Assembly: GCA_002633005.1 (NCBI GenBank)
Contig: NMRA01000011.1
Location: 1,771,275 to 1,835,274, forward strand
Reading direction: 5' to 3'
Length of the DNA stretch: 64,000 nucleotides
From: Phoronis australis
Taxonomy: Eukaryota > Animalia > Phoronida
This document shows, piece after piece, positions 909 to 27,200 of the stretch (the stretch's first letter is position 1; each line of letters begins with the position of its first letter). The notes beneath the pieces were generated by a model that saw only the letters and a program-made list of their open reading frames with translations, did no database searches and was not told where the DNA came from. The position numbers and the translations under genes were made by a program.

Positions 909-956
909 ATGAATCACTCCCCACTGAGAATCCTCGCCAGCCTTCTGCTGCCATCG
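909..956 (+). CDS. Phase 1-1 exon (xESLPTENPRQPSAAI)
   Basis: ttttcag acceptor, G|gtaagt donor, 48 nt, open in phase 1. Confidence 0.6.
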
Positions 957-4760: not shown

Positions 4761-4763
4761 AGG

Positions 4764-6003
4764 TTATACCACGTACATAGGAATACTACCTTTGGTCTCG
4801 TTGGGCCATTCCCAGATGAAATGAAATTCTCAATAAGTTACGGCAGTAGTGTTCCTAGGTATGTGGGATAACCTATAATAGTTATTCTACGCCTGTTGAA
4901 TAACATTTTGGTGGGAACCCGAGGCCGGATTCGAACCCGCTTTGCTAGAGTTTCAAATCGCCGAATTAACCGCATTCAGCAGCTGACGTCATCGTACGTG
5001 AAAATAGAATACTTTCATTTTCACGTACGTTATTAACGTAGAAAATAAATCTGAAACTAAATAAGGCGATCCAGATCCTCCCGAGGATACTATTGTTTCA
5101 CGAAATGTAGAATACAAATAGGTAAATAAAACAACAAGAATGGATCAACTGAAATTTTCGGATGTAGTAACGTCCTATGTCAACAGAAACAGAAATAAAG
5201 TAAAGTCAAACACTATATGATTTTGCTTTATTTCTGTTTCTGTTGACACAAGACGATATTAAATCCGGAAATTTCAATTGATCCATTCTTGTTGTTTCAT
5301 TTGCCTATTTATATTCTACATGGCGTTATTAAAAAATGAGAACGTGCAGTAATCGCATGCTCAACAAACAGCATTGTACCGACATTTATACGCTGTGATT
5401 AATGAAATTTCAATAAAATAGCATTTTTGATTTAGTAAAATTTATCTGACATTTTCTCTCGCTTGTATATCATGGATCTCCAGTTAAAATGCGAGTGACG
5501 TGTCGTCGTGATCCCTTGACTTGGGCATTATACTCAGTAACCAGTGGTAATCTATTTTAGCAGACGCTATTTTCCCAGTGGAAGCTTGGTACGATAACAT
5601 GTGTAGTAAGATAGACGACTTGTTTAAAACTTATTTTATATTCACTTTATTTCTATTTTGATTAAATTTTGCTTGGATTTGAGTAAAAGCATTGTGTTAT
5701 CAAGAATAAGTTGACGTTTCTTAAAAGGTCACGACCTCCAACCCTGGACCTCTGACATAGACAGTAGTTACAAAGCCGAGGCTAGTCCAGAAAGGTAGAT
5801 CAATTCATTGAAATGTTTATCCTTCAGTAATGTGGTATAAATAGATTATTATATATTCTCAGTCGTTATCCCCTTTTTCAAGGGCCCTCGTGAATTTTAT
5901 AAAATTTTCGCCCTCGAAGCTAACGCCTTGGGTGATAATTCTTTAAAATCCACTTGGGCTCTAGATTAATGGGGATAACGACTTCGCCATATAATAATCT
6001 ACA
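4764..6003 (-). mobile_element. Hairpin-ended non-autonomous element (Crypton-like) with tRNA-like cassette; inverted copy of 47311-48417
   Basis: Colinear reverse-complement similarity to 47311-48417; ~130-bp terminal hairpin at ~5855-5990; B box (ggattcgaaccc) at ~4927. Confidence 0.65.
5105..5321. repeat. Foldback palindrome (~100-bp arms) inserted in the element above
   Basis: atgtagaata...gtcaacagaaacagaaataaag / ctttatttctgtttctgttgac...tattctacat; absent from the 48.2 kb copy; cgttattaa direct repeat at 5028 and 5324. Confidence 0.8.
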
Positions 6004-6009
6004 TTTGCT

Positions 6010-6700
6010 TAACATCTTACTAGTGCGTTGGGCATTTTTGCAGGTAGACCCCATGCGCCACCGGTCTCGAATATCCGATTTCGAGATGAAGGCTCAGATA
6101 CAGGTATATAAGGGCAATGCAGACTGTCTACATGTAAATGTCGATGTCCTGTTGTCAGAAGATGTAGTTCAGTGGGGTTTCATAATCATGGATACTCCTT
6201 GGTTTCGTTTATTCTTTCTTACAACATATTAAAATATGTATCTTCGATTGCCACAAGTACAGCAATGAACAACTGTGTAATTAGGAATGTAACTTTAATA
6301 AATTTTTCCTTGTGGATAAGTGGATGTAATGTGGGAACCATAACACGTTTGTTTTTGCATGACTCCTGAAAGGTCAGTGCACGAAACTCGATGTGAGTTC
6401 TTAAAAGCTGATGTACACGTCAACAATAATCGGTTTTGCCGGGTCATCTGGAATCATTGCTTTTCCTATTTTGTGTTGGAATCCTCGAGAATATTACTCA
6501 AACATTATCCTCTTGTAATGTCAGCATTATTTAATCTGGAATTTATCATCAGTTTTGTTTTAACAATTGAAAAGTCGATTTCGGAATCAATCCACTAATA
6601 GAACGTGTAAACCAGTATTCATGTAACCCATAGCACATCCTCAATACGAAAACCTTTATACATCAGGAAGGGTGCATTTAAACAACACTCGTAAGAACCT
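6010..6700 (-). mobile_element. Possible highly decayed Penelope-like RT fragment
   Basis: GCAMG-like (~6630) and VTFL-like motifs in broken minus-strand frames; weak. Confidence 0.25.
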
Positions 6701-7618
6701 TCGTATCATACAGTAGTTAAGACAGCCGTGGGGATTCACTAGCGAGGTTGACGCCGCATTTCTAAAAAGTGCAACATTCTTGTTGACTTGAGACATGATC
6801 GCAGTTTACATTCGAACAAAAGGCACCCTTTACACAACACGTGTATGAGTTCTTTTGCCAACAGAATATCATGGCACGACCTTCTCAGATAAGGACAGGC
6901 GTCAGACATTTAACAGCGTCCTCCCAATATTGCGTATAATTTTGTGAACTATCTGAGTATTAAGGTTGCTGAAAGTTGATTATGCGCACTAGCGAGCGTT
7001 ACGCCCCATTTTTGTAAGGACATAACACTCCTCTTGACGTGAGACATGATCGTAGTAAGCAGTGCACTCTTGACTCAGCACGTGTATGTATGTATTTCGT
7101 TGCCAACAGAATGTCATGACACGACCGCCTTAGCTAGGGGCAGGCGTCAGACCTTTGACAAAACGAGGCACAGATATTTAACAGCGTGCTCCAAACATTG
7201 CGTATAAGTTTGTAAATTATTTGAGTATGAAAGTTGATCATGGGTAGTCAATCGAATTCCTTGCTTTTGCCCAGTCATGTACTTGCCAGTGGGAAATGGT
7301 GTGGACCTAACTTATCAATCACTGAGGGTAACAGTTAAACCATTTCACGATGTTTATCCGAGACTCACACTCCTCTTTCTCTTGCCTATCTTAAAGGGTC
7401 TTCTCTCAATGCCCCGTGTCTTCCCCTTTCTTCGTTTTTTTATGACAAAAGCAATTTAGTCACATGTCGCTTCATGGAAAAGGTATAAAGTTCATGTTGG
7501 TTTTCGTTTTAAGTATACAAAATATTCTTAATTCATGCCAATCTGTTAATTGTTACACAGAACAATCAACTTTGTTTCATACATAGACCCTCTTACACAT
7601 GCGTTTTCTATTTTTCAG

Positions 7619-7663
7619 GGAGGAATATGTATATGCAACAAGTTCCCCCTCCCAGCTATGTAG
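7619..7663 (+). CDS. Array exon 1, GRNMYMQQVPPPSYV (PPxY motif)
   Basis: tttttcag / gtaaga, 45 nt, phase 1-1 open. Confidence 0.75.
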   Translation, partial: GGICICNKFPLPAM

Positions 7664-8198
7664 GTAAGATGGGAGTAAAAACGTTCAAAATTTTTCAGTT
7701 GCGGCTCTGTCTCAGTTTTTCAATTGAATCACGATTTCAGTTTTTTGCTTATTTTCTTTGTCAGCAAACATAAGACCAACAAAACCCTATTTTAAAAGTA
7801 CTGGTTTAATGCTTGCATTACGTGGTACAGTACCGCAATCAATCAATAGCATGTCGTAGTCGGACAGTTTTAGAAACTTTGTGACTTGCCTCGTCGCACA
7901 ACTGTGCATGCAGTTTTGTTTTAGGCACGACTTTGGTGATTAACCTAAAATTTGTGAACAGAACTGAAGGTGAAATGTTTATCTGCGGATAGATGTCGAT
8001 TGACTGTTTCAGCCTTTTTACAAGCCCACTCACGCGTTTACTAAAACGTCAAATTCAAAACAAGAATAGTTAGAAGTGAACAGTAACGACATAGCACAGG
8101 TGGTCGTTTTATCAATTCATTCATATCTGTTGTTACACAGAGCAATCAGCTTTATTTCATTCATTGACTCTTGTGCACATACGTTGACTATTTTTCAG

Positions 8199-8240
8199 GG
8201 AGGAATATTTCTGCACAAGTTCCCTATACCAGCTATGAAG
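8199..8240 (+). CDS. Array exon 2, GRNISAQVPYTSYE
   Basis: tttttcag / gtaagg, 42 nt, phase 1-1 open. Confidence 0.75.
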
Positions 8241-9501
8241 GTAAGGGTAGGAGTTGTATATAATTTTTCGATTGCAGCTCTGAGTCAATTTTTGTATAAA
8301 GATTTCATTTTTCCTCATATTCATAGTCAGAAAACGTAACACTAACCCCAAAGCTGTACTTAAAAGTAATGCTGCCTATATAACATGGTGCAGTGCTAAA
8401 ATCACGCCGTAGCATAACGTAGCTCATTGACATTTATGGAGACTAAGCGACTTACCACCTCGCAGAACTGTTTTTGTTGATAGTTGAAAGATATAAACGT
8501 ACTCATACGTTTTCATTTCTTTGATAAAACATTTTAAGCCCAACTTTTAGCTATTAACCCACAATTGGTGAACAGAAATGAAGTTAAAAAGGTTGTGTGC
8601 GTATAAAAGGTGAGTCACTGTTTTGGCCCTAGTACACGCAGACTTATGTGTGCACAAAAAACAAATTCATACAAGATTCATTTGAAGTGAACAGAGAAGA
8701 CAGGGCAAAATAACCTTTGTGCCTAAGAGATAGCTTGATCAAAGGTCGATAGCCTGGTCATATATGAAGCTAGCTAAGTCGCAGCCTTTCATGACCGAAG
8801 ATGACGATGCATTTTTGTAAAAATAAAATGTTTTTACTTACGTGGGACATGATCGTAGTTTACATTAAATAAGGGCACCCCTCAAGCAACACGTGTATGG
8901 ATTGAGTTATTTTGCGAATGGTAGCAGAACATCATGATGTGACCGTCTTAGCTAAGTACTGGAGCAAAACCTTAGACAAAGCCCAGATATTTATTCCCAA
9001 CTCACACTGTACGCCAAACATTGCATATTTGTAAAGTATCTGTGTTCGAAGGCTACTCAAACTTGATTATGCGGAGTAAATCGCATTGAATTCTTGTTGT
9101 TGTTAGAGTCATTTTCCAAGAAGTCAATTTTGCTGTAGACCTAACTTACCAATCATTGAAAGCAACAGTTGAACCATCTCACGATCTTTACGAGCGTTTT
9201 AATGTACTGTGTGCGTTGCCCTTCTGAAGGCAACGATCGTCATTGTCGCATTTCAACTGCTTTCCTCGATGTTCAAGAACAAATAAGCTTTGTCACAGAA
9301 AGAGAAAATTGACAATTAAGTCGATTTTCACTATTCGGTTCACGGAAAACGACAAGCATGATTATAGTGTTGATTTTCGTCTTGAAAATTCAAAATATTC
9401 TCAATTCATGCAAATCTATTGTTACACAGAGCAATCAAGTTTGTTCCATTCATAGACTTTCTTGCACATACACCTGTACATGTACGTTGGCTATTTTTCA
9501 G

Positions 9502-9546
9502 GGTGGAATACTTCTATACCTCAAGTTACCCATCCCAGCTATATAG
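9502..9546 (+). CDS. Array exon 3, GWNTSIPQVTHPSYI
   Basis: tttttcag / gtaagg, 45 nt, phase 1-1 open. Confidence 0.75.
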   Translation, partial: GGILLYLKLPIPAI

Positions 9547-10137
9547 GTAAGGATTAGGAGCTAAAACTTGTCATAATCTTTCAGTCGCAGCTTTGTCTCA
9601 GTTTTTGGATCACGATTTTGGGTTTTTTGCTGATTTTCTTTGTCCGCAAACGTAACACCAACTAGAAACCGGCGCTTAAAAGTAATGGTTTAATGCTTAC
9701 ATTACGTCGTACAGTACCAAAATTATGCAATAGCATAACGTACAGTAGCAGGAAAGTTTAGAAAAGAATGTAACTTGCCACCTAGCACAATTGTGTAATG
9801 CGGTTTTTACGTGGTTGAAAGATTTAAAACATATTTACATGTTTTCACGTCTTTGATATAACATATTTCAAGCACGACTTTGATTGTTAACCGATAACTG
9901 GTGAGCCGAACTGAGTGTGGAAACGTTATCTGCGGATCGATTGACTGTTTCAGCCTTACTACAAGCCCACTCATGCGTTTACTAAAACGTCAAATTCAAA
10001 ACAAGAATCGTCAGAAGTGAACAGTGACGACATAGCACAGAGGGTCGTTTTATCAATGCATGCATATCGTTGTACACAGAGCAATCAGCTTTATTTCATT
10101 CACAGTCTCTTGTGCACATACGTTGACTATTTTTCAG

Positions 10138-10182
10138 GGAGGAATATTTCTGCACAACAAGTTCCCTATCCCAGCTATGAAG
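10138..10182 (+). CDS. Array exon 4, GRNISAQQVPYPSYE
   Basis: tttttcag / gtaagg, 45 nt, phase 1-1 open. Confidence 0.75.
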
Positions 10183-10816
10183 GTAAGGATAAGAGCTATA
10201 ACTGTACATAATTTTTCAATTGCAGCTCTGGGTCAGTTTTTGTTTAAAGAATTCATTTTTTGCTAATTTTCATTGTCAGAAAACGTAAGACTAACACCAA
10301 ATCTGTACTTAAAAATGCTTCTTGCCTATATTTCGTGATACAAGATACCAAAGTCACGCAGTAGCTTAACGTACATTTGGCTGGACATTTATGGAAACTA
10401 TGTGTCTTACCACCTCGCATAACTTTTTGTGTGGTTTAAAAACGGTTCAAATATATAAAATACTCTCATTTGTTTTCACTTCTTTGATAAAACGTTCACA
10501 TAGTATTTTGGTTATTAACGAAAATTTGGTGAGCAGAAATGAAGTTGAATGTGTTCACTAAAAACCAAATTCGCACAAGATTCATTAGACGTGAACAGAA
10601 AAACTAGGGCAATGTAACTTTTGTGCATCAGTAGATTGTTTTATCAAAGGTCGATAGCCCAGTCATATACTAAGCTAAGACAATTGCAGGCATTCACCAG
10701 AAAAGATGATGCCGCATTTTCGTGAGAATGAACCATTCCTACACACACGAGACATGAACGAAGTGATCGTGGTTTACAAAAGTCATTAAGAAACAGAGCC
10801 ATTCAAAAACAACTAA

Positions 10817-11099
10817 TATTAAAATCTCTTGGTCTGTTTACACCGACTCCTTATCTATGTTCATTTTCACATATTCGGTCGGTCTATTCTCCGGCTATCG
10901 TCAGGTGTTCCTGTGTTCTTAGAACGAGCACGGACAGTATATCATCAGAAGTTGCACCATGATGAGTGTACCACATACCCGTGCTCGTTCTTCTAAGTAC
11001 GCAGGAACACTTGACGATGGCCGGAGAATAGACCTACCGAAACGCCGTGACAATGTAAATTGACAGGATGTCGGTGTAAAAAACCAAGAGATTTTAATA
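10817..11099. repeat. Palindromic Penelope-type insert with two inverted hammerhead-like motifs (cores mutated in this copy)
   Basis: tattaaaatctcttggt...accaagagattttaata arms; ttgacga...gaaacgcc on +. Confidence 0.75.
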
Positions 11100-11708
11100 A
11101 TAAATGTAACACGTCACCACCTCAGAGAGGTTTTACAAAGTCATTCAAAACAATTGTATCAATTATTTTGCCAAACGTGGCCGAATGTCATGAAAGGACC
11201 GTCTCACCTAAGAACATGCGTACGAGTTTGCAAGTGGCCCAGATAATTATGACAACTCACAGCGTACCCCAAACACTACAGATTTATGAGCTATTTGCGT
11301 TCGAAGGCTGTTCAAAGTTGATCATGGGCAGTAGAACCCATTGATTGCTTATTGTTCGTATTCATATGCTAGCAAGGCGGTCAATGCTTTAGAGCTGACT
11401 TACCAAACCTTAAAAATAATAGTTGACCCATATCACGATTATACCAGTGTTTCACAGTCTAGTGGGCATTGTCTGTCTAAAGGAAAGGTCCTCATTGCCA
11501 AATTTCTCCTGATTTACTCCATTTTTAAAGACAAGCCCACTCATGCGTTTACTAAAACGTCAAATCCAAAACAAGAATCGTCAGAAGTGAACAGTAACGA
11601 CATAGCACAGGGGTCGTTTTATCAATGCATGCATATCTATTGTTACACAGAGCAATCAGCTTTATTTCATTCATAGACTCTTGCGCACATACGTTGACTA
11701 TTTTACAG

Positions 11709-11753
11709 GGAGGAATATTTCTGCACAACAAGTTCCCTATCGCAGATATGAAG
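11709..11753 (+). CDS. Array exon 5, GRNISAQQVPYRRYE
   Basis: ttttacag / gtacgg, 45 nt, phase 1-1 open. Confidence 0.7.
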
Positions 11754-12357
11754 GTACGGATAGGAGCTATAACTGTTTATAATTTTTCGATTGAATCTCT
11801 TGGTCAGTTTTTGTATAAAGAATTCATTTTTTGCTAATTTTCGTTGTCAGAAAACGTAAGGCTAACACCAAAGCTGTACTTATATATGCTTTTTGCCTTT
11901 ATTACGTGGTACACGATACCAAAGTCGCGCCATAGCTTAACGTACATTTAAATGGATAGTTATGGAAACTATGTGTCTTAGCACCTCGCATAACTATATA
12001 AAATATTCTCATTTGTTTACACTTCTTTGATAAAACGTTCATATAGTATTTTGGTTATTAACGAAAAATTGGTGAACAGAAATGAAGTTGAATGTGTTCA
12101 CGAAAACCAAATTCGCACAAGATTCATTAGAAGTGAACAGAAAAACTAAGGCAATATAACTTTGTGTATCAGTGGATTGTTTTATCAAAGGTCGATAGCC
12201 CAGTCATATACAAAGCTAAGACAATTGCAGGCATTCACGAGCCAAGATGATGCCGCATTTTCGTAAGAATGAACCATTCCTACACACACGAGACATGAAC
12301 GAAGTGATCGGGGTTTGCATAAGACATTAAGAAACAGAACCATTCAAAAACAACTAA

Positions 12358-12622
12358 TATTAAAATCTCTTGGTCTGCTTACACCGACTTCTTGTCTATT
12401 TTCATTGTCACGACGTTTCGTTCAGTCTATTCTCCGGCTATCGTCAGGTGTTCCTGCGGTCTTAGAACGAGCACGGACAGTATATCATCAGAAGTTGCAC
12501 CGTGATGAGTGTACCACATACCCGTGCTCGTTCTTGTAAGAACGCAGGAACACCTGACGATGGCCGGAGAATAAACCTACCGAAAAGTCGTAACAATGTA
12601 AATAGACCAAGAGATTTTAATA
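12358..12622. repeat. Palindromic Penelope-type insert; minus-strand hammerhead core intact at 12409-12450
   Basis: Reverse complement reads cac-CTGACGA-tagccggagaatagactgaac-GAAAC-GTC-gtg. Confidence 0.75.
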
Positions 12623-13232
12623 AAAAATGTAACACGTCACCACCTCAGAGAGGGTTTAGAAAATCATTCAAAAACAATTGTATCAATTATTTTGCCAAAC
12701 GTGGCAGAATGTCATGATAGGACCGTCTCAGCTAAGAACATGCGTACGACTTTGCAAGTGGCCCAGATAATTGTGAGAACTCACAGCGTACTCCAAACAC
12801 TACAGGTTTATGAGCTATTTGCGTTCGAAGGCTGTTCAAAGTTTATCATGGGCAGTAGAACGCATTGATTGCTTATTGTTCGTATTCATATGCTAGGAAG
12901 GCGGTCAATGCTTTAGAGCTGACTTACCAAACCTTAAAAATAATAGTTGACCCATATCACGATTATACCAGTGTTTCACAGTCTAGTGGGCATTGTCTGT
13001 CTAAAGGAAAGGTCCTCATTGCCAAATTTCTCCTGATTTACTCTATTTTTAAAGACAAGCCCACTCATGCGTTTACTAAAACGTCAAATCCAAAACAAGA
13101 ATCGTCAGAAGTGAACAGTAACGACATAGCACAGGGGTCGTTTTATCAATGCATGCATATCTATTGTTACACAGAGCAATCAGCTTTATTTCATTCATAG
13201 ACTCTTGCGCACATACGTTGACTATTTTACAG

Positions 13233-13277
13233 GGAGGAATATTTCTGCACAACAAGTTCCCTATCGCAGATATGAAG
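13233..13277 (+). CDS. Array exon 6, GRNISAQQVPYRRYE
   Basis: ttttacag / gtaagg, 45 nt, phase 1-1 open. Confidence 0.75.
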
Positions 13278-13911
13278 GTAAGGATAAGAGCTATAACTGT
13301 ACATAATTTTTCAATTGCAGCTCTGGGTCAGTTTTTGTTTAAAGAATTCATTTTTTGCTAATTTTCATTCTCAGAAAATGTAAGACTAACACCAAATCTG
13401 TACTTAAAAATGCTTCTTGCCTATATTTCGTGATACAAGATACCAAAGTCACGCAGTAGCTTAACGTACATTTGGATGGACATTTATGCAAACTATGTGT
13501 CTTACCACCTCGCATAACTTTTTGTGTGGTTTAAAAACGGTTCAAATATCTAAAATACTCTCATTTGTTTTCACTTCTTTGATAAAACGTTCATATAGTA
13601 TTTTGGTTATTAACGAAAATTTGGTGAGCAGAAATGAAGTTGAATGTGTTCACTAAAAACCAAATTCGCACAAGATTCATTAGACGTGAACAGAAAAACT
13701 AGGGCAATGTAACTTTTGTGCATCAGTAGATTGTTTTATCAAAGGTCGATAGCCCAGTCATATACTAAGCTAAGACAATTGCAGGCATTCACCAGCCAAG
13801 ATGATGCCGCATTTTCGTGAGAATGAACCATTCCTACACACACGAGACATGAACGAAGTGATCGTGGTTTACAAAAGTCATTAAGAAACAGAGCCATTCA
13901 AAAACAACTAA

Positions 13912-14194
13912 TATTAAAATCTCTTGGTCTGTTTACACCGACTCCTTATCTATGTTCATTTTCACATATTCGGTCGGTCTATTCTCCGGCTATCGTCAGG
14001 TGTTCCTGTGTTCTTAGAACGAGCACGGACAGTATATCATCAGAAGTTGCACCATGATGAGTGTACCACATACCCGTGCTCGTTCTTCTAAGTACGCAGG
14101 AACACTTGACGATGGCCGGAGAATAGACCTACCGAAACGCCGTGACAATGTAAATTGACAGGATGTCGGTGTAAAAAACCAAGAGATTTTAATA
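13912..14194. repeat. Palindromic Penelope-type insert (copy of 10817-11099)
   Basis: Near-identical to 10817-11099. Confidence 0.75.
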
Positions 14195-14803
14195 ATAAAT
14201 GTAACACGTCACCACCTCAGAGAGGTTTTACAAAGTCATTCAAAACAATTGTATCAATTATTTTGCCAAACGTGGCCGAATGTCATGAAAGGACCGTCTC
14301 ACCTAAGAACATGCGTACGAGTTTGCAAGTGGCCCAGATAATTATGACAACTCACAGCGTACCCCAAACACTACAGATTTATGAGCTATTTGCGTTCGAA
14401 GGCTGTTCAAAGTTGATCATGGGCAGTAGAACCCATTGATTGCTTATTGTTCGTATTCATATGCTAGCAAGGCGGTCAATGCTTTAGAGCTGACTTACCA
14501 AACCTTAAAAATAATAGTTGACCCATATCACGATTATACCAGTGTTTCACAGTCTAGTGGGCATTGTCTGTCTAAAGGAAAGGTCCTCATTGCCAAATTT
14601 CTCCTGATTTACTCCATTTTTAAAGACAAGCCCACTCATGCGTTTACTAAAACGTCAAATCCAAAACAAGAATCGTCAGAAGTGAACAGTAACGACATAG
14701 CACAGGGGTCGTTTTATCAATGCATGCATATCTATTGTTACACAGAGCAATCAGCTTTATTTCATTCATAGACTCTTGCGCACATACGTTGACTATTTTA
14801 CAG

Positions 14804-14848
14804 GGAGGAATATTTCTGCACAACAAGTTCCCTATCGCAGATATGAAG
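14804..14848 (+). CDS. Array exon 7, GRNISAQQVPYRRYE
   Basis: ttttacag / gtaagg, 45 nt, phase 1-1 open. Confidence 0.75.
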
Positions 14849-15483
14849 GTAAGGATAAGAGCTATAACTGTACATAATTTTTCAATTGCAGCTCTGGGTC
14901 AGTTTTTGTTTAAAGAATTCATTTTTTGCTAATTTTCATTGTCAGAAAATGTAAGACTAACACCAAATCTGTACTTAAAAATGCTTCTTGCCTATATTTC
15001 GTGATACAAGATACCAAAGTCACGCAGTAGCTTAACGTACATTTGGCTGGACATTTATGGAAACTATGTGTCTTACCACCTCGCATAACTTTTTGTGTGG
15101 TTTAAAAACGGTTCAAATATATAAAATACTCTCATTTGTTTTCACTTCTTTGATAAAACGTTCACATAGTATTTTGGTTATTAACGAAAATTTGGTGAGC
15201 AGAAATGAAGTTGAATGTATTCACTAAAAAAACAAATTCGCACAAGATTCATTAGACGTGAACAGAAAAACTAGTTCAACGTAACTTTTTTGCATCAGTA
15301 GATTGTTTTATCAAAGGTCGATAGCCCAGTCATATACAAAGCTAAGACAATTGCAGGCATTCACCAGCCAAGATGATGCCGCATTTTCGTGAGAATGAAC
15401 CATTCCTACACACACGAGACATGAACGAAGTGATCGTGGTTTACAAAAGTCATTAAGAAACAGAGCCATTCAAAAACAACTAA

Positions 15484-15746
15484 TATTAAAATCTCTTGGT
15501 CTGTTTACACCGACTCCTTATCTATGTTCATTTTCACATATTCGGTCGGTCTATTCTCCGGCTATCGTCAGGTGTTCCTGTGTTCTTAGAACGAGCACGG
15601 ACAGTATATCATCAGAAGTTGCACCGTGATGAGTGTACCACATACCCGTGCTCGTTCTTGTAAGAACGCAGGAACACCTGACGATGGCCGGAGAATAAAC
15701 CTACCGAAAAGTCGTAACAATGTAAATAGACCAAGAGATTTTAATA
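15484..15746. repeat. Palindromic Penelope-type insert, mosaic copy
   Basis: Left arm as in the 10817 copy; right arm (with short deletion) as in the 12358 copy. Confidence 0.75.
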
Positions 15747-16364
15747 AAAAATGTAACACGTCACCACCTCAGAGAGGGTTTAGAAAATCATTCAAAAACA
15801 ATTGTATCAATTATTTTGCCAAACGTGGCAGAATGTCATGATAGGACCGTCTCAGCTAAGAACATGCGTACGACTTTGCAAGTGGCCCAGATAATTGTGA
15901 CAACTCACAGCGTACTCCAAACACTACAGGTTTATGAGCTATTTGCGTTCGAAGGCTGTTCAAAGTTGATCATGCGCAGTAGAACGCATTGATTGCTTAT
16001 TGTTTGTATTCATATGCTAGCAAAACGGTCAATGCTTTAGAGCTGACTTAGCAATCCTTAAAAATAATAGTTGCCCCATATCACGATTGTGTCAGTGTTT
16101 CACAGTCGACTGGGCATTGTCAGGCCCTCATTGCCAAATTTCTCCTGCTTTACTCCATTTTTTAAAGACAAGGCTTTGTCACAGAAAGAGGAAATTGACT
16201 ATTAAGTCGATATTTACTGTTCGGTTCACGGAAACTGGCAAGCATTTCGTGCTGGTGTTCGTTTGAAAAATTCAAAGCATTCTCATTTCTTAAACCTCCT
16301 TGGTTACACAGAACAATCAGCTTGCTTCAAGGACCTTTTTGCACATACGTGAACTATTTTTCAG

Positions 16365-16406
16365 GAAGGAATGTTTCTATACAAGTTCCCTATCCCAGTT
16401 ACGACG
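16365..16406 (+). CDS. Array exon 8, GRNVSIQVPYPSYD
   Basis: tttttcag / gtaagg, 42 nt, phase 1-1 open. Confidence 0.75.
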
Positions 16407-16937
16407 GTAAGGATAGGACCTTAACCTGTTCACCAATTTTCGATTCCAGCTCTGTCTCAGGTTTTAGAGAATTTCAGTTTTTTGATTATTTTCATCGTCA
16501 GAAAATGTAAGACTAACACCAAACCTGTCATTTAAAAGTATCATGTTTTGGCTATATTTCCTGGTACAGTACCACAATCACACAATAGGATAACGTAGTC
16601 GGACAGTTTTAGAAACTGTGTAACTTGCCTCGTCGCACAACTATACATGCAGTTTTATTTCAGGCACGACTTTGTTTATTTCAAGAAAATTTGTGACCAG
16701 AACTGAAGGTGAAATGTTTATCTGCGGATAGATGTCGATTGACTGTTTCAGCCTTACTACAAGCCCACTCATGCGTTTACTAAAACGTCAAATTCAAAAC
16801 AAGAATAGTTAGAAGTGAACAATAACGACATAGCACAGGGGGCAGTTTTATCAATTCTTGCATATCTGTTGTTACACAGAGCAATCAGCTTTATTTCATT
16901 GATTGACTCTTGTGCACATCTGTTGACTATTTTTCAG

Positions 16938-16979
16938 GGAGGAATATTTCTTCACAAGTTCCCTATACCAGCTATGAAG
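16938..16979 (+). CDS. Array exon 9, GRNISSQVPYTSYE
   Basis: tttttcag / gtaagg, 42 nt, phase 1-1 open. Confidence 0.75.
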
Positions 16980-18249
16980 GTAAGGGTAGGAGTTATAACT
17001 GTATATAATTTTTAAATTGCAGCTCTGAGTCAGTTTGTGTATAAATATTTCATTTATCCTCATTTCCATAGTCAGAAAACGTAACACTAACGCCAAAGCT
17101 GTACCTAAGAGTAATGCTGCCTATAATACGTGGTGCAGTACTAAAATCATGCCATAGCATAACCTAGCTCATTCACATTGATGGAAACTAAGCGACTTAC
17201 CACCTCGCAGAACTGTTTTTTGTCGATAGTTGAAAGATAAAAACGTACTCATGTTTTCATTTCTTTGATAAAACATTTTTAAGCACAACTTTTAGCTATT
17301 AACCCACAATTGGTGAACAGAAATGAAGTTGAAAAGGTTGTGTGCGTATAAAAGGTGAGTCACTGTTTTGGCCCAAGTACAAGCAGACTGATGTGTGCAC
17401 AAAAACAAATTCATACAAGATTCATTTGAAGTGAACAGAGAAGACAGGGTACAATAACCTTTGTGCCTAGTAGATAGTTTTATCAAAGGTCGATAGCCTG
17501 GTCATGTATAAAGCTAGCTAAGTCTCAGCGTTTCATGACCGATGATGATGATGCAATTTTGTAAGAATAAAATGTTTTTACTTACGTGGGACATGATCGT
17601 AGTTTATATTAAATAAGGGCACCCCTCAAGAAACGCGTGTATGGATTGAGTTATTTTGCGAATGGTAGCAGAACATCATGATGTGACCGTCTTAGCTAAG
17701 TACTGGAGCAAAACCTTAGACAAAGCCCAGATATTTATTCCCAACTCACACTGTACGCCAAACATTGCATATTTGTAAAGTATCTGTGTTCGAAGGCTAC
17801 TCAAACTTGATTATGCGGAGTAAATCGCATTGAATTCTTGTTGTTGTTAGAGTCATACACTTGCCAAGCAGTCAGTTTTGCTGTAGACCTAACCTACCAA
17901 TCATTGAAAGCAACAGTTGAACCATCTCACGATCTATATGAGCGTTTAAATGTACTGTGTGCGTTGTCCTTCTGAAGGCAACGATCGTCATTGTCGCATT
18001 TCAACTGCTTTCCTCGATTTTCAAGAACAAGTAAGCTTTGTCACAGAAAGAAAATATTGACAATTAAGTCGATTTTCACTATTCGGTTCACGGAAAACGA
18101 CAAGCATGATTATAGTGTTGATTTTCGTCTTTAAAATTCAAAATATTCTCAATTAATGCAAATCTATTGTTACACAGAGCAATCAAGTTTGTTCCATTCA
18201 TAGACTTTCTTGCACATACACCTGTACATGTACGTTGGCTATTTTTCAG

Positions 18250-18294
18250 GGTGGAATACTTCTATACCTCAAGTTACCCATCCCAGCTATATAG
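18250..18294 (+). CDS. Array exon 10, GWNTSIPQVTHPSYI
   Basis: tttttcag / gtgagg, 45 nt, phase 1-1 open. Confidence 0.75.
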   Translation, partial: GGILLYLKLPIPAI

Positions 18295-18891
18295 GTGAGG
18301 ATTAGGAGATAAAACTTGTCAAAATCTTGCAGTCGCAGCTTTGTCTCAGTTTTTGGATCACGATTTCGGGTTTTTTTCTGATTTTCTTTGTCAGCAAACG
18401 TAACACCAACTAGAAACCCGCACTTAAAAATACTGGTTTAATGCTTACATTACGTCGTACAGTTCCAAAATTACGCAATAGCATAACGTACAGTAGCAGG
18501 ACAGTTTAGAAAAAGTATGTAACTTGGCACCTAGCACAACTGTGTATGCGGTTTTTACGTAGTTGAAACCTTTAAGACATATTTACATGTTTTCACGTCT
18601 TTGATATAACATTTTTCAAGCACTACTTTGATTGTTAACTGATAACTGGTGAGCCGAACTGAGTGTGGAAACGTTATCTGCGGATAGAAGTCGATTGACT
18701 GTTTCAGCCTTACTACAAGCCCACTCATGCCGTTTCTAAAACGTCAAATTCAAAACAAGAATCGTCAGAAGTGAACAGTAACGACATAGCACAGAGGGTC
18801 GCTTTTTCAATGCATGCATATCGTTGTAGACAGAGCAATCAGCTTTATTTCATTCATAGACTCTTGTGCACATACGTTGACTATTTTTCAG

Positions 18892-18936
18892 GGAGGAATA
18901 TTTCTGCACAACAAGTTCCCTATCCCAGCTATGAAG
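18892..18936 (+). CDS. Array exon 11, GRNISAQQVPYPSYE
   Basis: tttttcag / gtaagg, 45 nt, phase 1-1 open. Confidence 0.75.
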
Positions 18937-19571
18937 GTAAGGATAAGAGCTATAACTCTACATAAGTTGTCGATTGCAGCTCTGGGTCAGTTTTTGTTTA
19001 AAGAATTCATTTTTTGCTAATTTTCATTGTCAGAAAACGTAAGACTAACACCAAAGCTGTACTTAAAAATGCTTCTTGCCTATATTACGTGGTACATGAT
19101 ACCAAAGTCACGCAGTAGCTTAACGTACATTTAGCTGAACAGTTATGGAAACTATGTGTCTTACCACCTCACATAACTGTTTGTGTGGTTTACAAACTGT
19201 TCAAATATATAAAATACTCTCATTTGTTTTCACTTCTTTGATAAAACGTTCACATAGTATTTTGGTTATTAACGAAAATTTGGTGAGCAGAAATGAAGTT
19301 GAATGTATTCACTAAAAAAACAAATTCGCACAAGATTCATTAGACGTGAACAGAAAAACTAGTTCAACGTAACTTTTTTGCATCAGTAGATTGTTTTATC
19401 AAAGGTCGATAGCCCAGTCATATACAAAGCTAAGACAATTGCAGGCATTCACCAGCCAAGATGATGCCGCATTTTCGTGAGAATGAACCATTCCTACACA
19501 CACGAGACATGAACGAAGTGATCGTGGTTTGCAAAAGTCATTAAGAAACAGAGCCATTCAAAAACAACTAA

Positions 19572-19855
19572 TATTAAAATCTCTTGGTCTGTTTACACCG
19601 ACTTCTTGTCTATTTTCATTGTCACTACGTTTCGGTCGGTCTATTCTCGGCTATCGTCAGGTGTTCCTGTGTTCTTAGAACGAGCACGGACAGTATATCA
19701 TCAGAAGTCGCACCATCATGAGTGTACCACATACCTGTGCTCGTTCTTCTAAGAACGCAGGAACACCTGACGATGTCCGGAGAATAGACCTACCGAAACG
19801 TCGTGACAATGTAAATGGACAAGATGTCGGTGTAAAAGACCAAGAGATTTTAATA
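19572..19855. repeat. Palindromic Penelope-type insert, best-preserved copy
   Basis: ~125-bp inverted arms; hammerhead core recognisable on both strands. Confidence 0.8.
19764..19805 (+). ncRNA. Minimal type I hammerhead ribozyme-like motif (stem II imperfect)
   Basis: CAC-CTGACGA-tgtccggagaatagacctacc-GAAAC-GTC-GTG: catalytic core, palindromic ACGT stem III, 3-bp stem I. Confidence 0.55.
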
Positions 19856-20484
19856 ATAAATGTAACACGTCACCACCTCAGAGAGGTTTTAGAAAGTCAT
19901 TCAAAAACAATTGTATCAATTATCTTGCCAAACGTGGCCGAATGTCATGAAAGGACCGTCTCAGCTAAGAACATGCGTACGAGTTTGCAAGTGGCCCAGA
20001 TAATTATGACATCTCACAGCGTACTCCAAACACTACAGGTTTATGAGCTATTTGCGTTCGAAGGCTGTTCAAAGTTGATCATGCGCAGTAGAACGCATTG
20101 ATTGCTTATTGTTAGTAGTCATATGCTAGCAAGGCGGTCAATGCTTTAGAGCTGACTTACCAATCCTTAAAAATAATAGTTGACCCACATCACGATTATA
20201 CCAGTGTTTCACAGTCTAGTGGGCATTGTCTGTCCAAAGGAAAGGTCCTCATTGCCAAATTTCTCCTGCTTTACTCCATTTTTAAAGACAAGGCTTTGTC
20301 ACAGAAAGAGAAAATTGAAAATTAAGTCGATATTTACTGTTCGTTTCACGGAAAATGGCAAGAATTTCGTGCTGGTGTTCGTTTGAAAAACTCAAAGCAT
20401 TCTCATTTCTTAAACCTCCTTGGTTACACAGACCATTCAGCTTGTTTCATGGATCTTGTTGCAAATACGTGGACTATTTTTCAG

Positions 20485-20526
20485 GAAGGAATGTTTCTAT
20501 ACAAGTTCCCCATCCCAGCTACGAAG
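20485..20526 (+). CDS. Array exon 12, GRNVSIQVPHPSYE
   Basis: tttttcag / gtaagg, 42 nt, phase 1-1 open. Confidence 0.75.
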
Positions 20527-21343
20527 GTAAGGATAAGACCTTAACCTGTTTACAAATTTTCGATTCCAGCTCTGTCTCAGGTTTTAGATAATTTCAGATT
20601 TTTGCTTATTTTCATTGTCAGAATATGTAAGACTAACACCTAACCTGTCATTTAAAAGTTATCATGTTTTGGCTATATTTCCTGGTACAGTGTCATAATC
20701 ACGCCATAGCATAGCGAAGCTGGACAGTTGTAGAAACCTTTCACTTACCGCCCTGAAGAACTGTGTATTTGGTTTTTAAAATTGTTCAAACATATAAAAC
20801 TAACTTGCATGGTTTTATGTTTTGATAAAACGCTTTTCAAGAACAATTTTGGACGTGGCCCAGGTACGTTTCACATCTCACAGCATACTCCAAACACTGC
20901 GTGTTTTAAGCTGCTCCGTTGGAAGTCTGCTCCAACTTGATCATTCGCAGTGAAAAATAATGATTGCTTATTGTTCGTAAAGCGGCCAATGCTTAAGACC
21001 TATCTTGTCAATCAATGAAGGTAACAGCTGACTCATCTCACGATTGTATCAGCGCTTTTCACACGTGTGATCGATGTCCATCTGAAAGAAAAGTCCTCAT
21101 TCCAAATTTCCCCTGCTTTACTCGATTTTTGAGGACAGAGTTTTGCCACAGAAAGAGAAAATTGACAAGTCAATTTTTACTGTTCGGTTCAAGGAAAGGG
21201 GCGAGAATTTCAACTTGGTTTTCGTTCAAAAAATTCAAAAGATTCTCAGTTCATACAAATCCGTTTTTACACTTACCAATCAGCTTTGTTTCATTGATGG
21301 ACACTTTTTCTCATACATGTACTGTACGTTGGGTATTTTACAG

Positions 21344-21385
21344 GGAGAAATGTTTCTGTACAAATTCCCCATCGCAGTAATGAAG
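21344..21385 (+). CDS. Array exon 13, GRNVSVQIPHRSNE
   Basis: ttttacag / gtaagg, 42 nt, phase 1-1 open. Confidence 0.7.
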
Positions 21386-22588
21386 GTAAGGATACAAGCT
21401 AAACCTGTTGATACATTTTGGGTTCCAGCTCTGTCTCAGTTTTTTGATATTGATTTCAGAATTGTCAGAAAACGTAAGACTAACTACACCAAACCTGTAA
21501 TTAAAAGTTACGTTTTTGGCTATGTTACGTAGTGCAGTACCAAAATCACGCCACAGCATAGCGTAGGTGGACTGCAGTTATAGAAAACTTGTGTCTTAAC
21601 ACCACGCAGGCCTGTGCATTTGTTTTTTTTTAAATTGTTCGCGTATATAAAACGAACTCATATGTTTTAATTTGTGATGAAATGCTATTCAAGCGTAATT
21701 TGGTTATTGACCGAAATTTGGGGAACAAAACTTGGAGTTGAAAACGTATTATTCGGTTCAAATTGAGGTCAGTGCGTCACCCCTAATAGGGGCGAACTCG
21801 GGTATTCACTAAAAAGTCAAATTCACACAAGATTCAATAGAAGTGAACAGGAAAGACAGAGCAAAATAATTTTTTTGCATCAGGGTGTAGTTTTATCAAA
21901 GATCGATAGCCTGGTCGTATATGAAGCTAGATAGTCGCAGCATTAACCAGCCAAAAGATGTTGCACCATTTTTATAAGCACGAAACATTCCTACTGATCG
22001 ACGTGAGTCATGTTTGTTGGTTACATTAAAAACGACACCTTTAAAAAAACAAGTGTACGATTTATTTGGCCAATCGTGTAAAGAATATCATGACACGAGT
22101 GTCTCAGCTAAGAACAGGCGAAATACATTTGGCCCAGATATTTATCACACGTCACAGCGTACTCCAAGCACTGCATATTTATAAAATATCTGTGTTTGAA
22201 GACTGCTCCAAGGTGACTATATACAGTAAATGCATTGTTGTTCGTAGAGTCATGTACTTGCCAAGCAGTCAAATCTGTAGGCCCAACTATCCAGTCACTG
22301 TTCAGAAGATAGTGGTTGACTCGTCTCACGATTTTTACCAGCGTTCCACACTCGTGTGTACGTTGATCATCTGCTTTCCTCAATTTTCGAGGACAACAGC
22401 TTTGCCACAGTAAGAGAAAATTAAGTCGATTTTCGCAGTTAAGTTTAAGGGAGATGGCAAGAATTTCGTGTTGATTTTCGTTTGAAAAATTCAAAGTTTT
22501 CTCACTTCATGCAAATCCGTTGTTACACAGAACAATCTGCTTTGTTTCATTCATAGACCCTCTTGCAATTACGTTGGCTATTTTTCAG

Positions 22589-22624
22589 GATCGAATATTT
22601 CTGTTTCCCATACCACATATGAAG
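22589..22624 (+). CDS. Array exon 14, GSNISVSHTTYE
   Basis: tttttcag / gtaagc, 36 nt (frame-preserving deletion), phase 1-1 open. Confidence 0.7.
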
Positions 22625-22856
22625 GTAAGCATAGGAGCTAAATTTGTTCATGATTTTTCTGTTGTGTCTCTGTCTCAATTTTGGATCACGATTTCAGTTT
22701 TGTGCTCATTTTTATCAGAAACCCTCCCAAGAACTACACGAAACCCGTGCTTATAAATAATGATTATTCTTATATTACCTAGTATAGTAACAAAATCACG
22801 CCATAGCATAACGTATACGGACAGCCTATAGAAACTACGTGACTTACTACTGGCAA

Positions 22857-22858
<2 letters not shown>

Positions 22859-22897
<39 letters not shown>

Positions 22898-22926
22898 AGC
22901 GTGTGTGCGCGCGCGCGTGTGTGTGT
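22859..22926. repeat. (GT)n/(GC)n microsatellite
   Basis: Direct reading. Confidence 0.95.
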
Positions 22927-23897
22927 TATTTTAAACCGTTGAACGTTCTTATTACGTACTCTTCGATAAAGCGTTTTTCAAGCACAATTTTGGTTATAGC
23001 AGAGATTGGGGATTGTTGAACAAAATTGAAGTTGAAAAATGTGATTTTTGGTTAAAACTCAACCCTAGTTCAGGCAGACTCAAGTGTTCACTAAAAAGAC
23101 AAATTCACCCAAGATTCATTAGAAGAGCGAACAGGAAAGACAATGCACAATAACTTGTGTGCTTAGTCAGGGTCGTTTTTTCAAAGGTCGATAGCTTGGT
23201 GATAATGAAGCTAAGACAGTCATAGGCATTCACTAGGGAAGATGCCACCGCATTTTTGTAAGAATGAAACACTCATACTGAAATGAGACATGACGATATT
23301 AAGAAAACGACACTCTTAAAGCAACTTACACATGTACATGTATGAGTTATCTTAGCAATCGTGGCAGAATGGTAATAAGATACGACCACCTTAGCTAAGA
23401 TGAGGTGTAAGAACTTTGACAAGGCTCAGGTATCTATTACAACTCACACTGCACTCCAAACATTGCATATTTGTAAAACAGCAGGGATTGAGGGCTGCTC
23501 AAAGTTGATTATGCGGAGTAAATCGCATTGACTCTTTAATTTTTCGTTGAGTCATGAACTCGCGAAGCGCTCAAAGCTGTAGACCTAACTTACCAATCAC
23601 TGAAGAAAACCCTTGACCCATTAAACGATAATAACCAGCGTTTCACATTCGTGCATCCGCTTTCCATCTGAAGGAAACTGCGCTCATTGCCAAATTTCAC
23701 CTCCATTGCTAGATTTTCGAGGCTTTGCCACAGAAAGAGAAAATGGACAATTAGGTCTATTTTTACTCATCGGTTCACAGAAAGTGCAAAAATGTGTTGA
23801 TTTTTGTTTTCAAATTCAAAGTATTCGCAATTGATGCAAATTTGTTGCTGCCCAGGACCTTCTTGTAAACACGTTTATTACTCATGAAAGGGGAAAG

Positions 23898-23943
23898 GGG
23901 GGAAATTTTTTGGTACAATAAGTTCCCCATCCCAGCTATGAAT
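23898..23943 (+). pseudogene. Dead 15th array exon (pseudoexon)
   Basis: Pyrimidine tract replaced by purines; CAA>TAA at 23919; donor context degraded (aat|gtaaag). Confidence 0.7.
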
Positions 23944-24706
23944 GTAAAGATAAGAGTTAAAACTGTTCATAAGTTTTCGGTTGTAGCTATGTCTCACTTT
24001 TGGTTCACGATTTCAGTTTTTGCTGATTTCCTTTGTCAGAAAACGTAAGGCCAACACCAAACCGTGCTTAAAAGTAATGTCTAAATTACCCAGTACCGTA
24101 CCATAATCACGCCATAATATAAGGTAACTGGACAGCTAGATATAGCAACTTTGTGACTTACCACCTCACAACACTGTATTTGTTTTTTGAAACGGTTAAA
24201 ATTCCGGTTAAAATTCTGTTAACTGCTTCAGCAGCGGCAGACTCATGCCTTCACTAAAGAATCAAGTTCGCACAGGAGTCATTAGAAGAGAAAAGAAGAT
24301 ACAAAACAAAATAATCTTTGTACATCAAGGGGTCGTTTCATTGAAGGTTTAGCCCGATCATACATGTACCTAGTAAGCATGTTTAGTGAAGGTGACTCCG
24401 CATTTTTATGAAAATGAAAACCTCCTACTAAGGTGAGACATGATAATAGTTTGCATTCAAACAGGACAACCTCTTCATAAAACACGGAAAGGAATTTTCA
24501 ATCAATAGAACATCAGGATACGACAGTCTTAGCCGTAACACCAGGCTTAATACCTTTTAACACGAGGCCCAGATATTTATCACCCATCATAACGTACATG
24601 TACACCAAGGTCTGAATATACAATGTACAAAATGTGTGCGTTTGAAGACTTCACAAAATAAATTGTGTGTGTATCAAATAGTAATGACATCTTACAAACT
24701 TTTCAG

Positions 24707-24751
24707 CGGGACATGGTGTAGATGCAAGGTGTCAAAGCCCAAACACTGACG
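24707..24751 (+). CDS. Phase 1-1 exon after the array (AGHGVDARCQSPNTD)
   Basis: cttttcag / G|gtaaga, 45 nt, open in phase 1. Confidence 0.6.
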
Positions 24752-24785
24752 GTAAGAGTGGATCCACTTCACGTATCTTAGTGAC

Positions 24786-25008
24786 CCGCCTCCCGTTCAG
24801 TAACGCTAGGACCTCGCTAAAAAGCAAGACTTCGCGAGATTACGTGAGATATTGCCGTGTATTTTAAATGAGAACACGTGACTTTGACTAGCTAACGTGA
24901 GATATTGCTGTGTATTTTAAATGAGAACACGTGACTTTGACTCGCTAGCGTGTTTTAACTAGGTCCTAGCCTACATGTAGGTCCTAGCGTCTACTGAACG
25001 CACGCCCG
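24786..25008. mobile_element. MITE (TIR cgttcagtaacgctaggacc), internal ~54-bp duplication; relative at 57651-57781
   Basis: ttcagtaacgctaggacct...aggtcctagcgtctactgaa; same core in both copies. Confidence 0.7.
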
Positions 25009-26490
25009 CATTCTACACTCGCATGCGAGTTGTTAACATCGCGAGGATAATTATTCTTTCTGCTTCTATTAGTTAAAAACTTCATAAGCCGGATTTAAAA
25101 GAAGTTAGTTTAATCGATACTTAAGACCAAATAATATATGTATGCTCATTCAAAAAATTCCAAATTTTTCCAACTTAACTGAATTTGATAGGATTTTTTA
25201 ATTTACTTTTTATTTTTGGTTGAGTATCACCTCCTGAAATGGTCGCCGTATAGATTGACAGATGACTCATGCATTATGGGTACTCACTCAAGGGCTGTCA
25301 ATAGGTTATGAGGTTTCCGCTGAAACCCCGCCCACTTTTTAGTTTTTAGAACTAATAGGACAATAAGGCAAAAACACACAAAGCTGAAAGTTACAAAATG
25401 TTTACATTTCATCGATATCTTTCGACTGACAAAACTCTTCCGGAGTCTAAATTGATGAATTTAGAGGAAAGAGTGTCTTTAAAGAAGCGATAGCTAATGC
25501 TGCAATTCACCTGCCCTCGTAAGAAAAGCATGTTTAATTATAGCTTTTGAATTAGAAAACGTGTTTCACAAAATTGGTTTGGACCTGTTCCTTACTCAGA
25601 TTTGGAGTGACTCTGCGTGCTTCGCCTAAATTAAACTGATGGTAGACCTTCGGGTCTTAGTACTTTACTGCCTGTTCACCGAGTGTAGGAGATAGTGGGT
25701 TAGGTTAGTTCCAAACTAGATGGCTGTCACAATTTGGTCCGACTTGGTTATCAATTAGATGGTTATTGTTACATGGTTAATACTGAGGCAAACCCCTTGT
25801 ATACTTATGCTAATGAACTTCGTTTTTCATGCTCGGGTTGCCAGGCACGCTATTGCTGTTACACACGTGTTGCTTGACGCAGTCTACCAGTGATTTGGGT
25901 GTAGTGCAGTTGTGTTTTGCTACGCTCTTTATCTCATGTTTGTGGCACATGGTGCTCATGCCAGTTAAAATGAGTGGGAACAGTAAATGCGATTTATACT
26001 GAAGATTCTCTAGAACTGGTAGCCTACTTGTAATACGACATGTCAGTCGGTTTGTTACGTGCAGCCGGCCTTTATACATGTACATGTAGGTTCCTTCTGA
26101 TTGTGATTCGAAAGTGTATTTATGCTGTTGTTTGTTATGTAGGGTCGTTTGACTTACTTGATTATTGAACCTGTGAAATTTCCAGATGACACTTGTGTTT
26201 TGTCATGACGCTACTGAACCGTGAGTGGTGACTGGTCAAGCTCAAGCAAGGCTGGGGAATGAGTAACAGTCAAGCCAAAGCAGTGAACAGTCGATAAGAG
26301 CTGACAAGCTGTTAGTTGTGGCGCTGTGCTAGCGCTTCAAGAGACATCAATGAACTGTGATAACTTTTTGTGTCAGTTTAGGATCTATTTTTAAGCGGCC
26401 TTGACATTTTGTTTGGAAGTACCGAAAGTATAAATATTGTGTTTATCTTTTTCAATGAGGCGTGGAAATATGTGGCGAACATTTGGTCTG

Positions 26491-26761
26491 GCCAACACGC
26501 CATCTTTTTTGGTCACATCACGTGACCTAATGAATATCAGTCCGAAAGATATCTACCCCCGACCGGGACTCGAACCCAGGACCTTGTGCTAACCTTGATC
26601 AAGGGTAAGATGCCACGACTAAGTCTGATTGGATTTCTGTGCTACATCAGTGGCCCCCATGGCTCAGTGGCTAGAGCGTCTGCACGGTGGGCAGGTATCT
26701 TTTCGGACTTGTATCAAGTTCATTAGGTCACTTGATGTGACCAAAAAGATGTCGTGCTGAC
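26491..26761. mobile_element. Palindromic MITE-like element built from two divergent tRNA-derived heads
   Basis: ~65-bp TIRs; B box on - (26566-26576); A box TGGCTCAGTGG on + (26660-26670). Confidence 0.75.
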
Positions 26762-27057
26762 GAGAATGCAGAACAAAATTCCGTTAACAACTGATGTCAC
26801 TAGAGTTTTAAAAAACTATAGAAATATAGAATTTACTATTATTAAAATCAACGGTACATTAGAATATCGCAACGAAAAATGCATGGAATTTAGTTCAACT
26901 ATAACGCTGGTAAATGTTTATGTGTGTTTATGTAAGTTTGTATTGTAATTGACAATCTGATATAATGAATGTTTGAAAAAAAAACTAAAAAAATTCGAGT
27001 CAACACTCACTGCTATGAGTTTATGCGTATTGTGTTTGTGGAATATTTGATTTATAC

Positions 27058-27200
27058 TTAAAGGAGCATGCCACCCAAAAAAACAACCTAATTTGTGTCA
27101 GTTTAGATCGAGTAGTTCTACTCCATAACGGCACGCACATGTGCGGTTGCGTTAAATGACACCGGAGGGCAGACGGAGGTGTTGAAATTATCCAATGACG
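27058..27200 (+). mobile_element. Probable Kolobok-type terminus (other end not found)
   Basis: TTAA followed by aggagcatgccacccaaa, similar to the terminus at 34729. Confidence 0.4.

Follow-up and report, generated by a model that had tools for sequence, protein, structure and literature searches.

Is the diverged tandem array at approximately 6.7 to 24.2 kilobases (kb) of a 64,000-nucleotide (nt) stretch of Phoronis australis DNA (contig NMRA01000011.1; hereafter the window), as delimited by self-comparison, a macrosatellite, or does it consist of small coding exons that have multiplied inside a gene? The latter had been proposed from the letters alone (hereafter the original prediction). 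We assign a probability of roughly 0.7 to the reading that 14 segments of the array are real coding exons, mostly included together, which encode a fast-evolving, low-complexity tail of a probably prenylated intracellular protein. That they are phase-1 coding exons inside a gene is, judging from the sequence, very likely, because the retention of splice sites exceeds the neutral expectation and a single frame is common to 21 candidate exons.

Anatomy of the array

The array was not detected by Tandem Repeats Finder, which has a period limit of 500 nt. A search with the repeat unit as the probe returned 15 copies and one weak match at 3252-3287. With its outermost exon copies as the limits, the array covers 16.3 kb, or approximately 17.5 kb with its homologous flanks, which corrects the figure of about 18 kb given originally. 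As had been described, an exon-like segment bounded by TTT(T/A)CAG upstream and GT downstream was recovered in 14 out of 14 copies, with a length of 45 nt in eight of them, 42 nt in five and 36 nt in one, and with introns of 531-1548 nt in between. The donor read GTAAG in 12 copies, and GTACG and GTGAG in one copy each. Phase 1 was open in all 14 segments; TAG interrupts phase 0 in copies 1, 3 and 10, and nine of the 14 have a stop in phase 2, in agreement with the earlier statement that phase 1 alone is open throughout.

When joined, the 14 segments sum to 606 nt, i.e., 202 codons, close to the approximately 200 residues that had been anticipated. The encoded peptide contains 13% Ser, 11% Tyr, 10% Pro and 9% Gln, and a Tyr stands two residues ahead of the exon end in 13 of the 14 copies. 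Only 10 distinct exon sequences are present: copies 5-7 are identical, as are copies 3 and 10 and copies 4 and 11, and exons 5-7 and 9-11 deviate in sequence from exons 2-4 by 0-2 nt. Two assignments tried on this peptide were discarded. The core motif of RHIM is (I/V)Q(I/V)G; the cores here read IQVP/VQIP, and a RHIM/amyloid reading was dropped. A PY motif is defined as [PL]PxY; PxY occurs in 7/14 copies and the canonical form in 1/14 (PPxY, exon 1 only), and a NEDD4-binding PY-motif protein was rejected.

Copy 15 was said to have lost its acceptor tract, donor context and frame together, and this was borne out. The T-tract of its acceptor region is gone, with an identity of 0.56 to the other lineages versus 0.87 among those lineages; at the donor, GT is kept and positions -1 and +5 are altered; a TAA stands in the homologous frame, and the nearest AGs would give segments of 46 or 53 nt. 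The intron downstream of copy 15 is as similar to those of the other copies as those are among themselves. As a separate observation, a (GT)n microsatellite lies at 22859-22926, in the intron after exon 14, and arose in that unit alone.

Retention of splice sites and frame compared with neutral expectation

On a tree of the copies, approximately seven deep lineages were resolved, with an intron divergence of about 25-30% among them; the copies are thus not independent, and the sample size is not 14. Neutral evolution was simulated in 20,000 runs on a tree derived from intron columns (length of 1.43 substitutions per site). All AG and GT sites were retained in 0.3% of the runs, and phase 1 was kept open in 3.9%. 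Splice sites and frame were both retained in 0.025% (5/20,000), the mean number of intact copies being 3.6. These values are optimistic, since the segment had been picked for this very pattern.

The rates of change along the unit were compared with the neutral expectation as well. Acceptor positions had undergone 7 changes versus 15 expected (P=0.011), donor positions 6 versus 12 (P=0.038) and exon bodies 33 steps versus 48 (P=0.008), and the downstream intron evolved at the neutral rate (57 versus 55 expected). With regard to indels, the exon gaps are of two distinct kinds, 3 nt and 9 nt long, against 23 gaps in 310 columns of intron, eight of the latter being multiples of three. From the intron gap rates, the probability of no frameshift in 45 nt is approximately 0.11, and the multiple-of-three lengths go back to 2-3 indel events. 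The original prediction had made much of lengths that are always a multiple of three in spite of intron indels; the lengths are as stated, and frame preservation is less strongly backed than was claimed. Taken alone, these lengths are weak evidence.

Tandem exon duplication is often tied to mutually exclusive choice, according to the available part of a published account (PMC9013439), and the array copies could be chosen one per transcript as in Dscam; their sequences are not all alike, and conservation extends over the 90 nt ahead of each array exon. We consider this arrangement quite unlikely. It is disfavoured because docking complementarity in three flanking introns did not rise above shuffles (5-6, 2-3 and 5 of seven lineages; shuffles, 3-7), in a scan for simple complementarity that weak pairings could escape, because the introns are long, exceeding the range of steric exclusion, and because several copies are identical and bring no diversity. 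Moreover, with in-frame lengths, double inclusion carries no decay penalty. We infer that most copies would be included together by default.

The probable host gene of the array

Together with seven non-repeat segments, the array exons make up a set of 21 candidate exons (Table 1). All of them are flanked by AG and GT, have a length divisible by three and end in G. Phase 1 was open in the 21 exons, phase 0 blocked in six and phase 2 blocked in 16. A junction stop was found for no exon pair in this set, which upholds the claim that any subset of exons stays in frame, and neither a stop nor a frameshift was found in approximately 1040 nt of candidate coding sequence. Three further open segments (383-482, 752-823 and 1014-1142), whose exon boundaries are not fixable, were excluded from the 21. 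The idea of a modular repeat protein was backed in part: the simulation and the phase 1 common to 21/21 exons speak for coding exons with a shared frame, and self-comparison and intron identities (below) for tandem growth.

Exon 3209-3274 aligned to the repeat with a local score of 84, the maximum in 200 shuffles being 42 (blastn E 8e-4), and no homology to the repeat was found for exons 1903, 2351 and 24707. The repeat therefore descends from an exon that was already in the gene. At the other end of the array, a candidate acceptor at 26186 gives, provided that it is the last one, a seven-residue end with C-V-L-S-stop, which we take to be a CaaX-type box. This predicted end, which would be shared with CaaX-prenylated proteins such as H-Ras, whose last four residues are identical, suggests an intracellular protein. 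Unlike H-Ras, the array gene shows neither a GTPase domain nor any other domain within the window. Nor does the part of the gene that the window contains have a recognisable start codon; its 5' end lies upstream of the window.

Duplication history of the array

Introns 2 and 9, 3 and 10, and 7 and 11 are 93-94% identical, which shows that a four-unit block of approximately 4.1 kb was duplicated; both intron identity and the tree place exons 9-12 as a block duplicate of exons 2, 3, a 4-type exon and 8. The youngest amplification brought the unit-4 type to four copies: the introns of units 4-7 are 91-99.5% identical. Copies 1 and 13-15, at the two ends of the array, have the longest branches. 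Self-comparison and intron identities thus revealed successive tandem duplications, in keeping with the earlier description of the array as expanding. The order of events is that an exon related to 3209-3274 multiplied, that the four-unit block of about 4.1 kb was then duplicated, and that one 1.5-kb unit was finally amplified four-fold. The divergence and branch pattern are as would be expected from unequal crossover; an argument of the same kind has been made for the SmPoMuc genes of Schistosoma mansoni, in the part of that account available (PMC2576457).

Part of the copy number, in units 4-7, could be an over-expansion in the assembly, with the rest of the array real. Introns 4 and 6 share 99.5% identity across 1526 nt, and no difference separates exons 5-7. 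Nevertheless, a divergence of 5-10% is found between the other pairs of this block, and copy 5 is set apart by a donor variant and a deletion of its own; we see only a small chance of such an artefact, which would in any case be compatible with the exon reading.

The unit-4-type intron also harbours a hairpin insertion resembling a miniature inverted-repeat transposable element (MITE), with copies near 12355-12606, 13909-14197, 15481-15736 and 19569-19858 that spread with the later unit duplications. In the RNA reads described below, related copies of this element were seen to be transcribed from other loci.

Table 1. Positions of the array copies, the candidate exons of the host gene and the hairpin insertion in the window.
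Feature	Position	Strand	Remarks
Candidate upstream exon	909-956	+	48 nt, phase 1-1; AG/GTAAGT
Candidate exon	1765-1806	+	42 nt, phase 1-1; two X1 reads join at 1765
Candidate exon	1903-1962	+	60 nt, phase 1-1; phase 1 alone open
Candidate exon	2351-2440	+	90 nt, phase 1-1; phase 1 alone open
Candidate exon 3209-3274	3209-3274	+	66 nt, phase 1-1; 3' half and donor homologous to array exon
Candidate exon, final one ahead of array	6044-6103	+	60 nt, phase 1-1
Array exon 1	7619-7663	+	45 nt; sole copy with canonical PPxY
Array exon 2	8199-8240	+	42 nt
Array exon 3	9502-9546	+	45 nt
Array exons 4-7	10138-10182, 11709-11753, 13233-13277, 14804-14848	+	45 nt each; period ~1.5 kb
Array exons 8-12	16365-16406, 16938-16979, 18250-18294, 18892-18936, 20485-20526	+	
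Array exon 13	21344-21385	+	42 nt
Array exon 14	22589-22624	+	36 nt; in-frame deletion of 9 nt
Decayed copy 15	23899-23943	+	acceptor tract gone, donor weakened, in-frame TAA
Candidate penultimate exon	24707-24751	+	45 nt, phase 1-1; phase 1 alone open, GTAAG donor
Likely last coding segment	26186-26208	+	ends C-V-L-S-stop, then 3' untranslated region
Hairpin (MITE-like) insertion, unit-4-type intron	10809-11107		~300 base pairs (bp), inverted arms

Observations that weigh against the exon reading

Most of the observations gathered in this section speak against the reading of the segments as coding exons. Firstly, the seven non-repeat segments were chosen by eye, and of 59 acceptor-like downstream sites six yield a Cys at position -4; the CaaX end is therefore suggestive only. 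Secondly, the upstream intron window is also slow (49 changes versus 64 expected, P=0.016) and matches the exon in conservation. Thirdly, across the seven lineages the nonsynonymous proportion of differences (pN) was 0.24 and the synonymous one (pS) 0.18, and their ratio of 1.36 falls inside the neutral 95% range of 0.52-1.95; pN was not under the neutral level (P=0.20). The comparison of exons with introns, proposed at the outset as a check, thus gave a mixed answer: the exons are slower than the average intron, and they neither beat the adjacent upstream intron nor have a dN/dS below 1. Since acceptor and donor are slow and pN/pS lies within its neutral range, the constraint falls on splicing and frame, and none is detectable on the peptide.

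The RNA data consisted of three paired-end runs and one contig set, chosen by species label, which is no evidence on expression; a search for RNA runs that contain 26100-27000 listed none. From each raw run, 18-19% was read, i.e., 11-13 million records. Reads were mapped onto 300-11600 and 22930-27300, with 11601-22929 (exons 5-14) outside, and the tables hold the best-supported joints only, among which interspersed repeats dominate. Among the joints listed for 300-11600, none connected predicted array exons in any of the four data sets, and the bins of array exons 1-3 had a depth of 0 in all four. The bins of the control exons 1903, 2351 and 3209 likewise had a depth of 0 in all four, which means that these samples hardly express the gene or that the mapped reads come from elsewhere. 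Near exon 4, three reads of run X1 carried a 31-nt intronic gap and were unspliced.

In favour of the gene, two X1 reads join at exactly the predicted acceptor, 1765, from 1110, with 34 letters that belong to neither side. For 21 of these letters no match was found in the window with up to three mismatches, and the reads may thus come from a paralogue or a diverged allele. X1 depth was approximately 3 at 300-1053, with a mate direction mostly opposite to that of the joint at 1765. The three closely spaced open segments mentioned above lie at low X1 depth and possibly reflect antisense or paralogous transcription. On the far side of the array, between 22930 and 24681, none of the 12 bins, that of copy 15 among them, had any depth in any run, and the bin of exon 24707 was swamped by repeat reads. 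The bin of the predicted last exon (26142-26287) reached a depth of 2.9 in X1, 1.9 in X2 and 0 in X3, the preceding bin being at 0, which likewise speaks for the gene; no joint at 26186 was among those listed. RNA support for the gene is weak.

Homologue searches were carried out with two exon-sized queries, the repeat peptide being too short as a query. The protein of exon 2351-2440 had no match among 1.84 billion representatives, and a second search retained 0 of 2 candidates. Similarly, none of five candidates was retained for the open reading frame at 1013-1147. In Pfam, nothing was above the cut-off for five of six queries.

Some of the results would also fit a reading in which most copies are unspliced passengers, with one or few ancestral exons in use and the rest intact through recent duplication. 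The array contains only about seven deep lineages and 10 distinct sequences, no protein-level constraint and no array joints in RNA, and the no-frameshift test alone gives a P of about 0.11. However, the lineages have diverged by some 25-30% in their introns, yet AG, GT and frame are all kept, an outcome seen in 0.025% of the neutral runs, and copy 15 displays what decay looks like. On this account we regard the passenger explanation as unlikely. Another reading of the almost absent coverage in three RNA runs, and of the unmatched letters upstream of the 1765 joint, is that the gene in its entirety is a pseudogene or a family copy silenced not long ago, the few reads stemming from a paralogue. 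The absence of any stop or frameshift from the candidate coding sequence argues against it, and the runs are of unspecified tissue and were read in small part (18-19% of each); silencing of the gene seems to us very unlikely.

Neighbouring CARD gene and other features of the window

Thirty kb downstream of the array, a CARD exon lies on the + strand at 54288-54497 (Pfam PF00619, E 4.5e-13), and its best solved relative is RAIDD (E 7.4e-7). A search for this CARD among longer proteins gave 0 of 30. Downstream of the CARD exon come a 61-nt exon that leads from phase 0 to phase 1 and a 57-nt phase-1 exon at 55724-55780. Two further phase-1 exons of this gene, of 27 nt each (61718-61744 and 62630-62656), sit in a duplicated block of approximately 370 bp that is 80% identical between its copies; the pair may mark where another microexon array begins that extends past the window. 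The window thus contains the design of small phase-1 exons twice; paralogy is plausible on this ground, and the array gene is possibly a paralogue of the CARD gene. A CARD was found only in this neighbour and not within the window part of the array gene.

Several other features were observed in the window. Short hydrophobic exon-like segments at 34980-36260 on the + strand (35601-35830, 36135-36230) resemble a small multi-pass, TMEM272-like membrane protein; for the two frames tried there was no Pfam match, and a frame break is possible near 35750. A second diverged tandem array, at 30377-34363, has subunits of approximately 400-800 bp that are 70-83% identical, opens with a triple repeat of 74-77 bp and is probably a repetitive element. 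A unit of about 430 bp occurs in three diverged copies (68-72% identical) at 48997-50436. Finally, decayed coding-like sequence at 41724-44173 is enclosed by direct repeats that are 81% identical and about 500 bp long, suggestive of the remnant of an old long terminal repeat element.

Comparison with known systems and implications

The duplication of symmetric exons together with introns builds repeat proteins such as LPA kringle IV-2, NBPF/Olduvai, titin PEVK and those with casein exons. Judged by its architecture, the locus is an instance of this known gene design, a tandem array of symmetric exons, for which SmPoMuc, the polymorphic mucins of S. mansoni, offers the precedent. As far as the available text describes them, SmPoMuc genes carry a 27-bp symmetric exon with introns in units of approximately 1 kb and up to about 20 copies, which encode a variable repeat domain; the authors consider unequal crossover and conversion, in-frame alternative splicing is reported, and variation in repeat number was shown in cDNA (PMC2576457). 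In the array, too, the unit is one exon plus its flanking intron in tandem, and the exons are symmetric and share a single frame with the flanking unique exons. The likeness to the SmPoMuc repeat region, in the part of the account available, is one of architecture; two single-exon queries brought up no relative of any kind. The secreted SmPoMuc mucin carries its repeat at the N-terminus, whereas the repeat is here predicted to be C-terminal with a likely CaaX end, and SmPoMuc units are more than 94% identical, whereas the old copies here are about 70% identical.

The micro-exon genes (MEGs) of schistosomes, in the available part of their description, have many short exons, mostly multiples of three, between long introns, and pose difficulties for automatic annotation; the exons are mostly of 15 bp, and the proteins have a signal peptide and short conserved motifs (PMC10526429). 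Many short, mostly symmetric exons between long introns are found here too. Membership among the MEGs, as so described, is not supported: the exons here are of 36-90 nt and not of about 15 bp, and the array copies are homologous tandem duplicates. The locus shares with the Dscam clusters a long tandem series of homologous exons that have diverged; unlike them, it presented no docking or selector pairing in our scan, and its tiny exons encode low-complexity peptide and not immunoglobulin halves. Approximately 10% of animal genes are cited as having tandemly duplicated exons in the accessible part of PMC9013439. Compared with tandem exon duplication in general, the array stands out by 14 intact copies of 12-15 codons, a nested higher-order duplication and a putative intracellular adaptor tail. 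In the titles and abstract openings of the literature covered, most subscription papers being outside, neither this locus nor any CARD/CaaX microexon array was found to be described.

On the exon reading, the array would add approximately 200 residues of a Ser/Tyr/Pro/Gln-rich, probably disordered C-terminal tail, and the protein bearing it likely ends in a prenylation box and would probably be membrane-anchored. Duplication by unequal crossover would be tolerated since each unit contributes whole codons, and selection would act on splicing and frame rather than on the exact peptide. With regard to function, we tentatively propose, at less than even odds, a multivalent tail of Tyr/Pro linear motifs on a membrane-anchored signalling adaptor. 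A more far-reaching proposal, which we hold to be unlikely, is a membrane-anchored adaptor in a cluster of similarly built CARD genes, in which the number and mix of tyrosine/proline docking motifs would be set by unequal crossover between individuals and by combinatorial microexon skipping within a single animal, as a form of immune diversification that is intracellular and not secreted or at the surface.

The locus offers a clean, datable case of exon-by-exon growth in a repeat protein, where copies that are old, young or dead stand next to each other, and this in an array concealed in what repeat maskers would label a macrosatellite. It suggests that splice sites and frame are kept by selection while the peptide drifts freely. 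If skipping or copy-number variation proved true in a CARD-linked adaptor, it would offer a testable instance of tunable signalling valency in invertebrate immunity.

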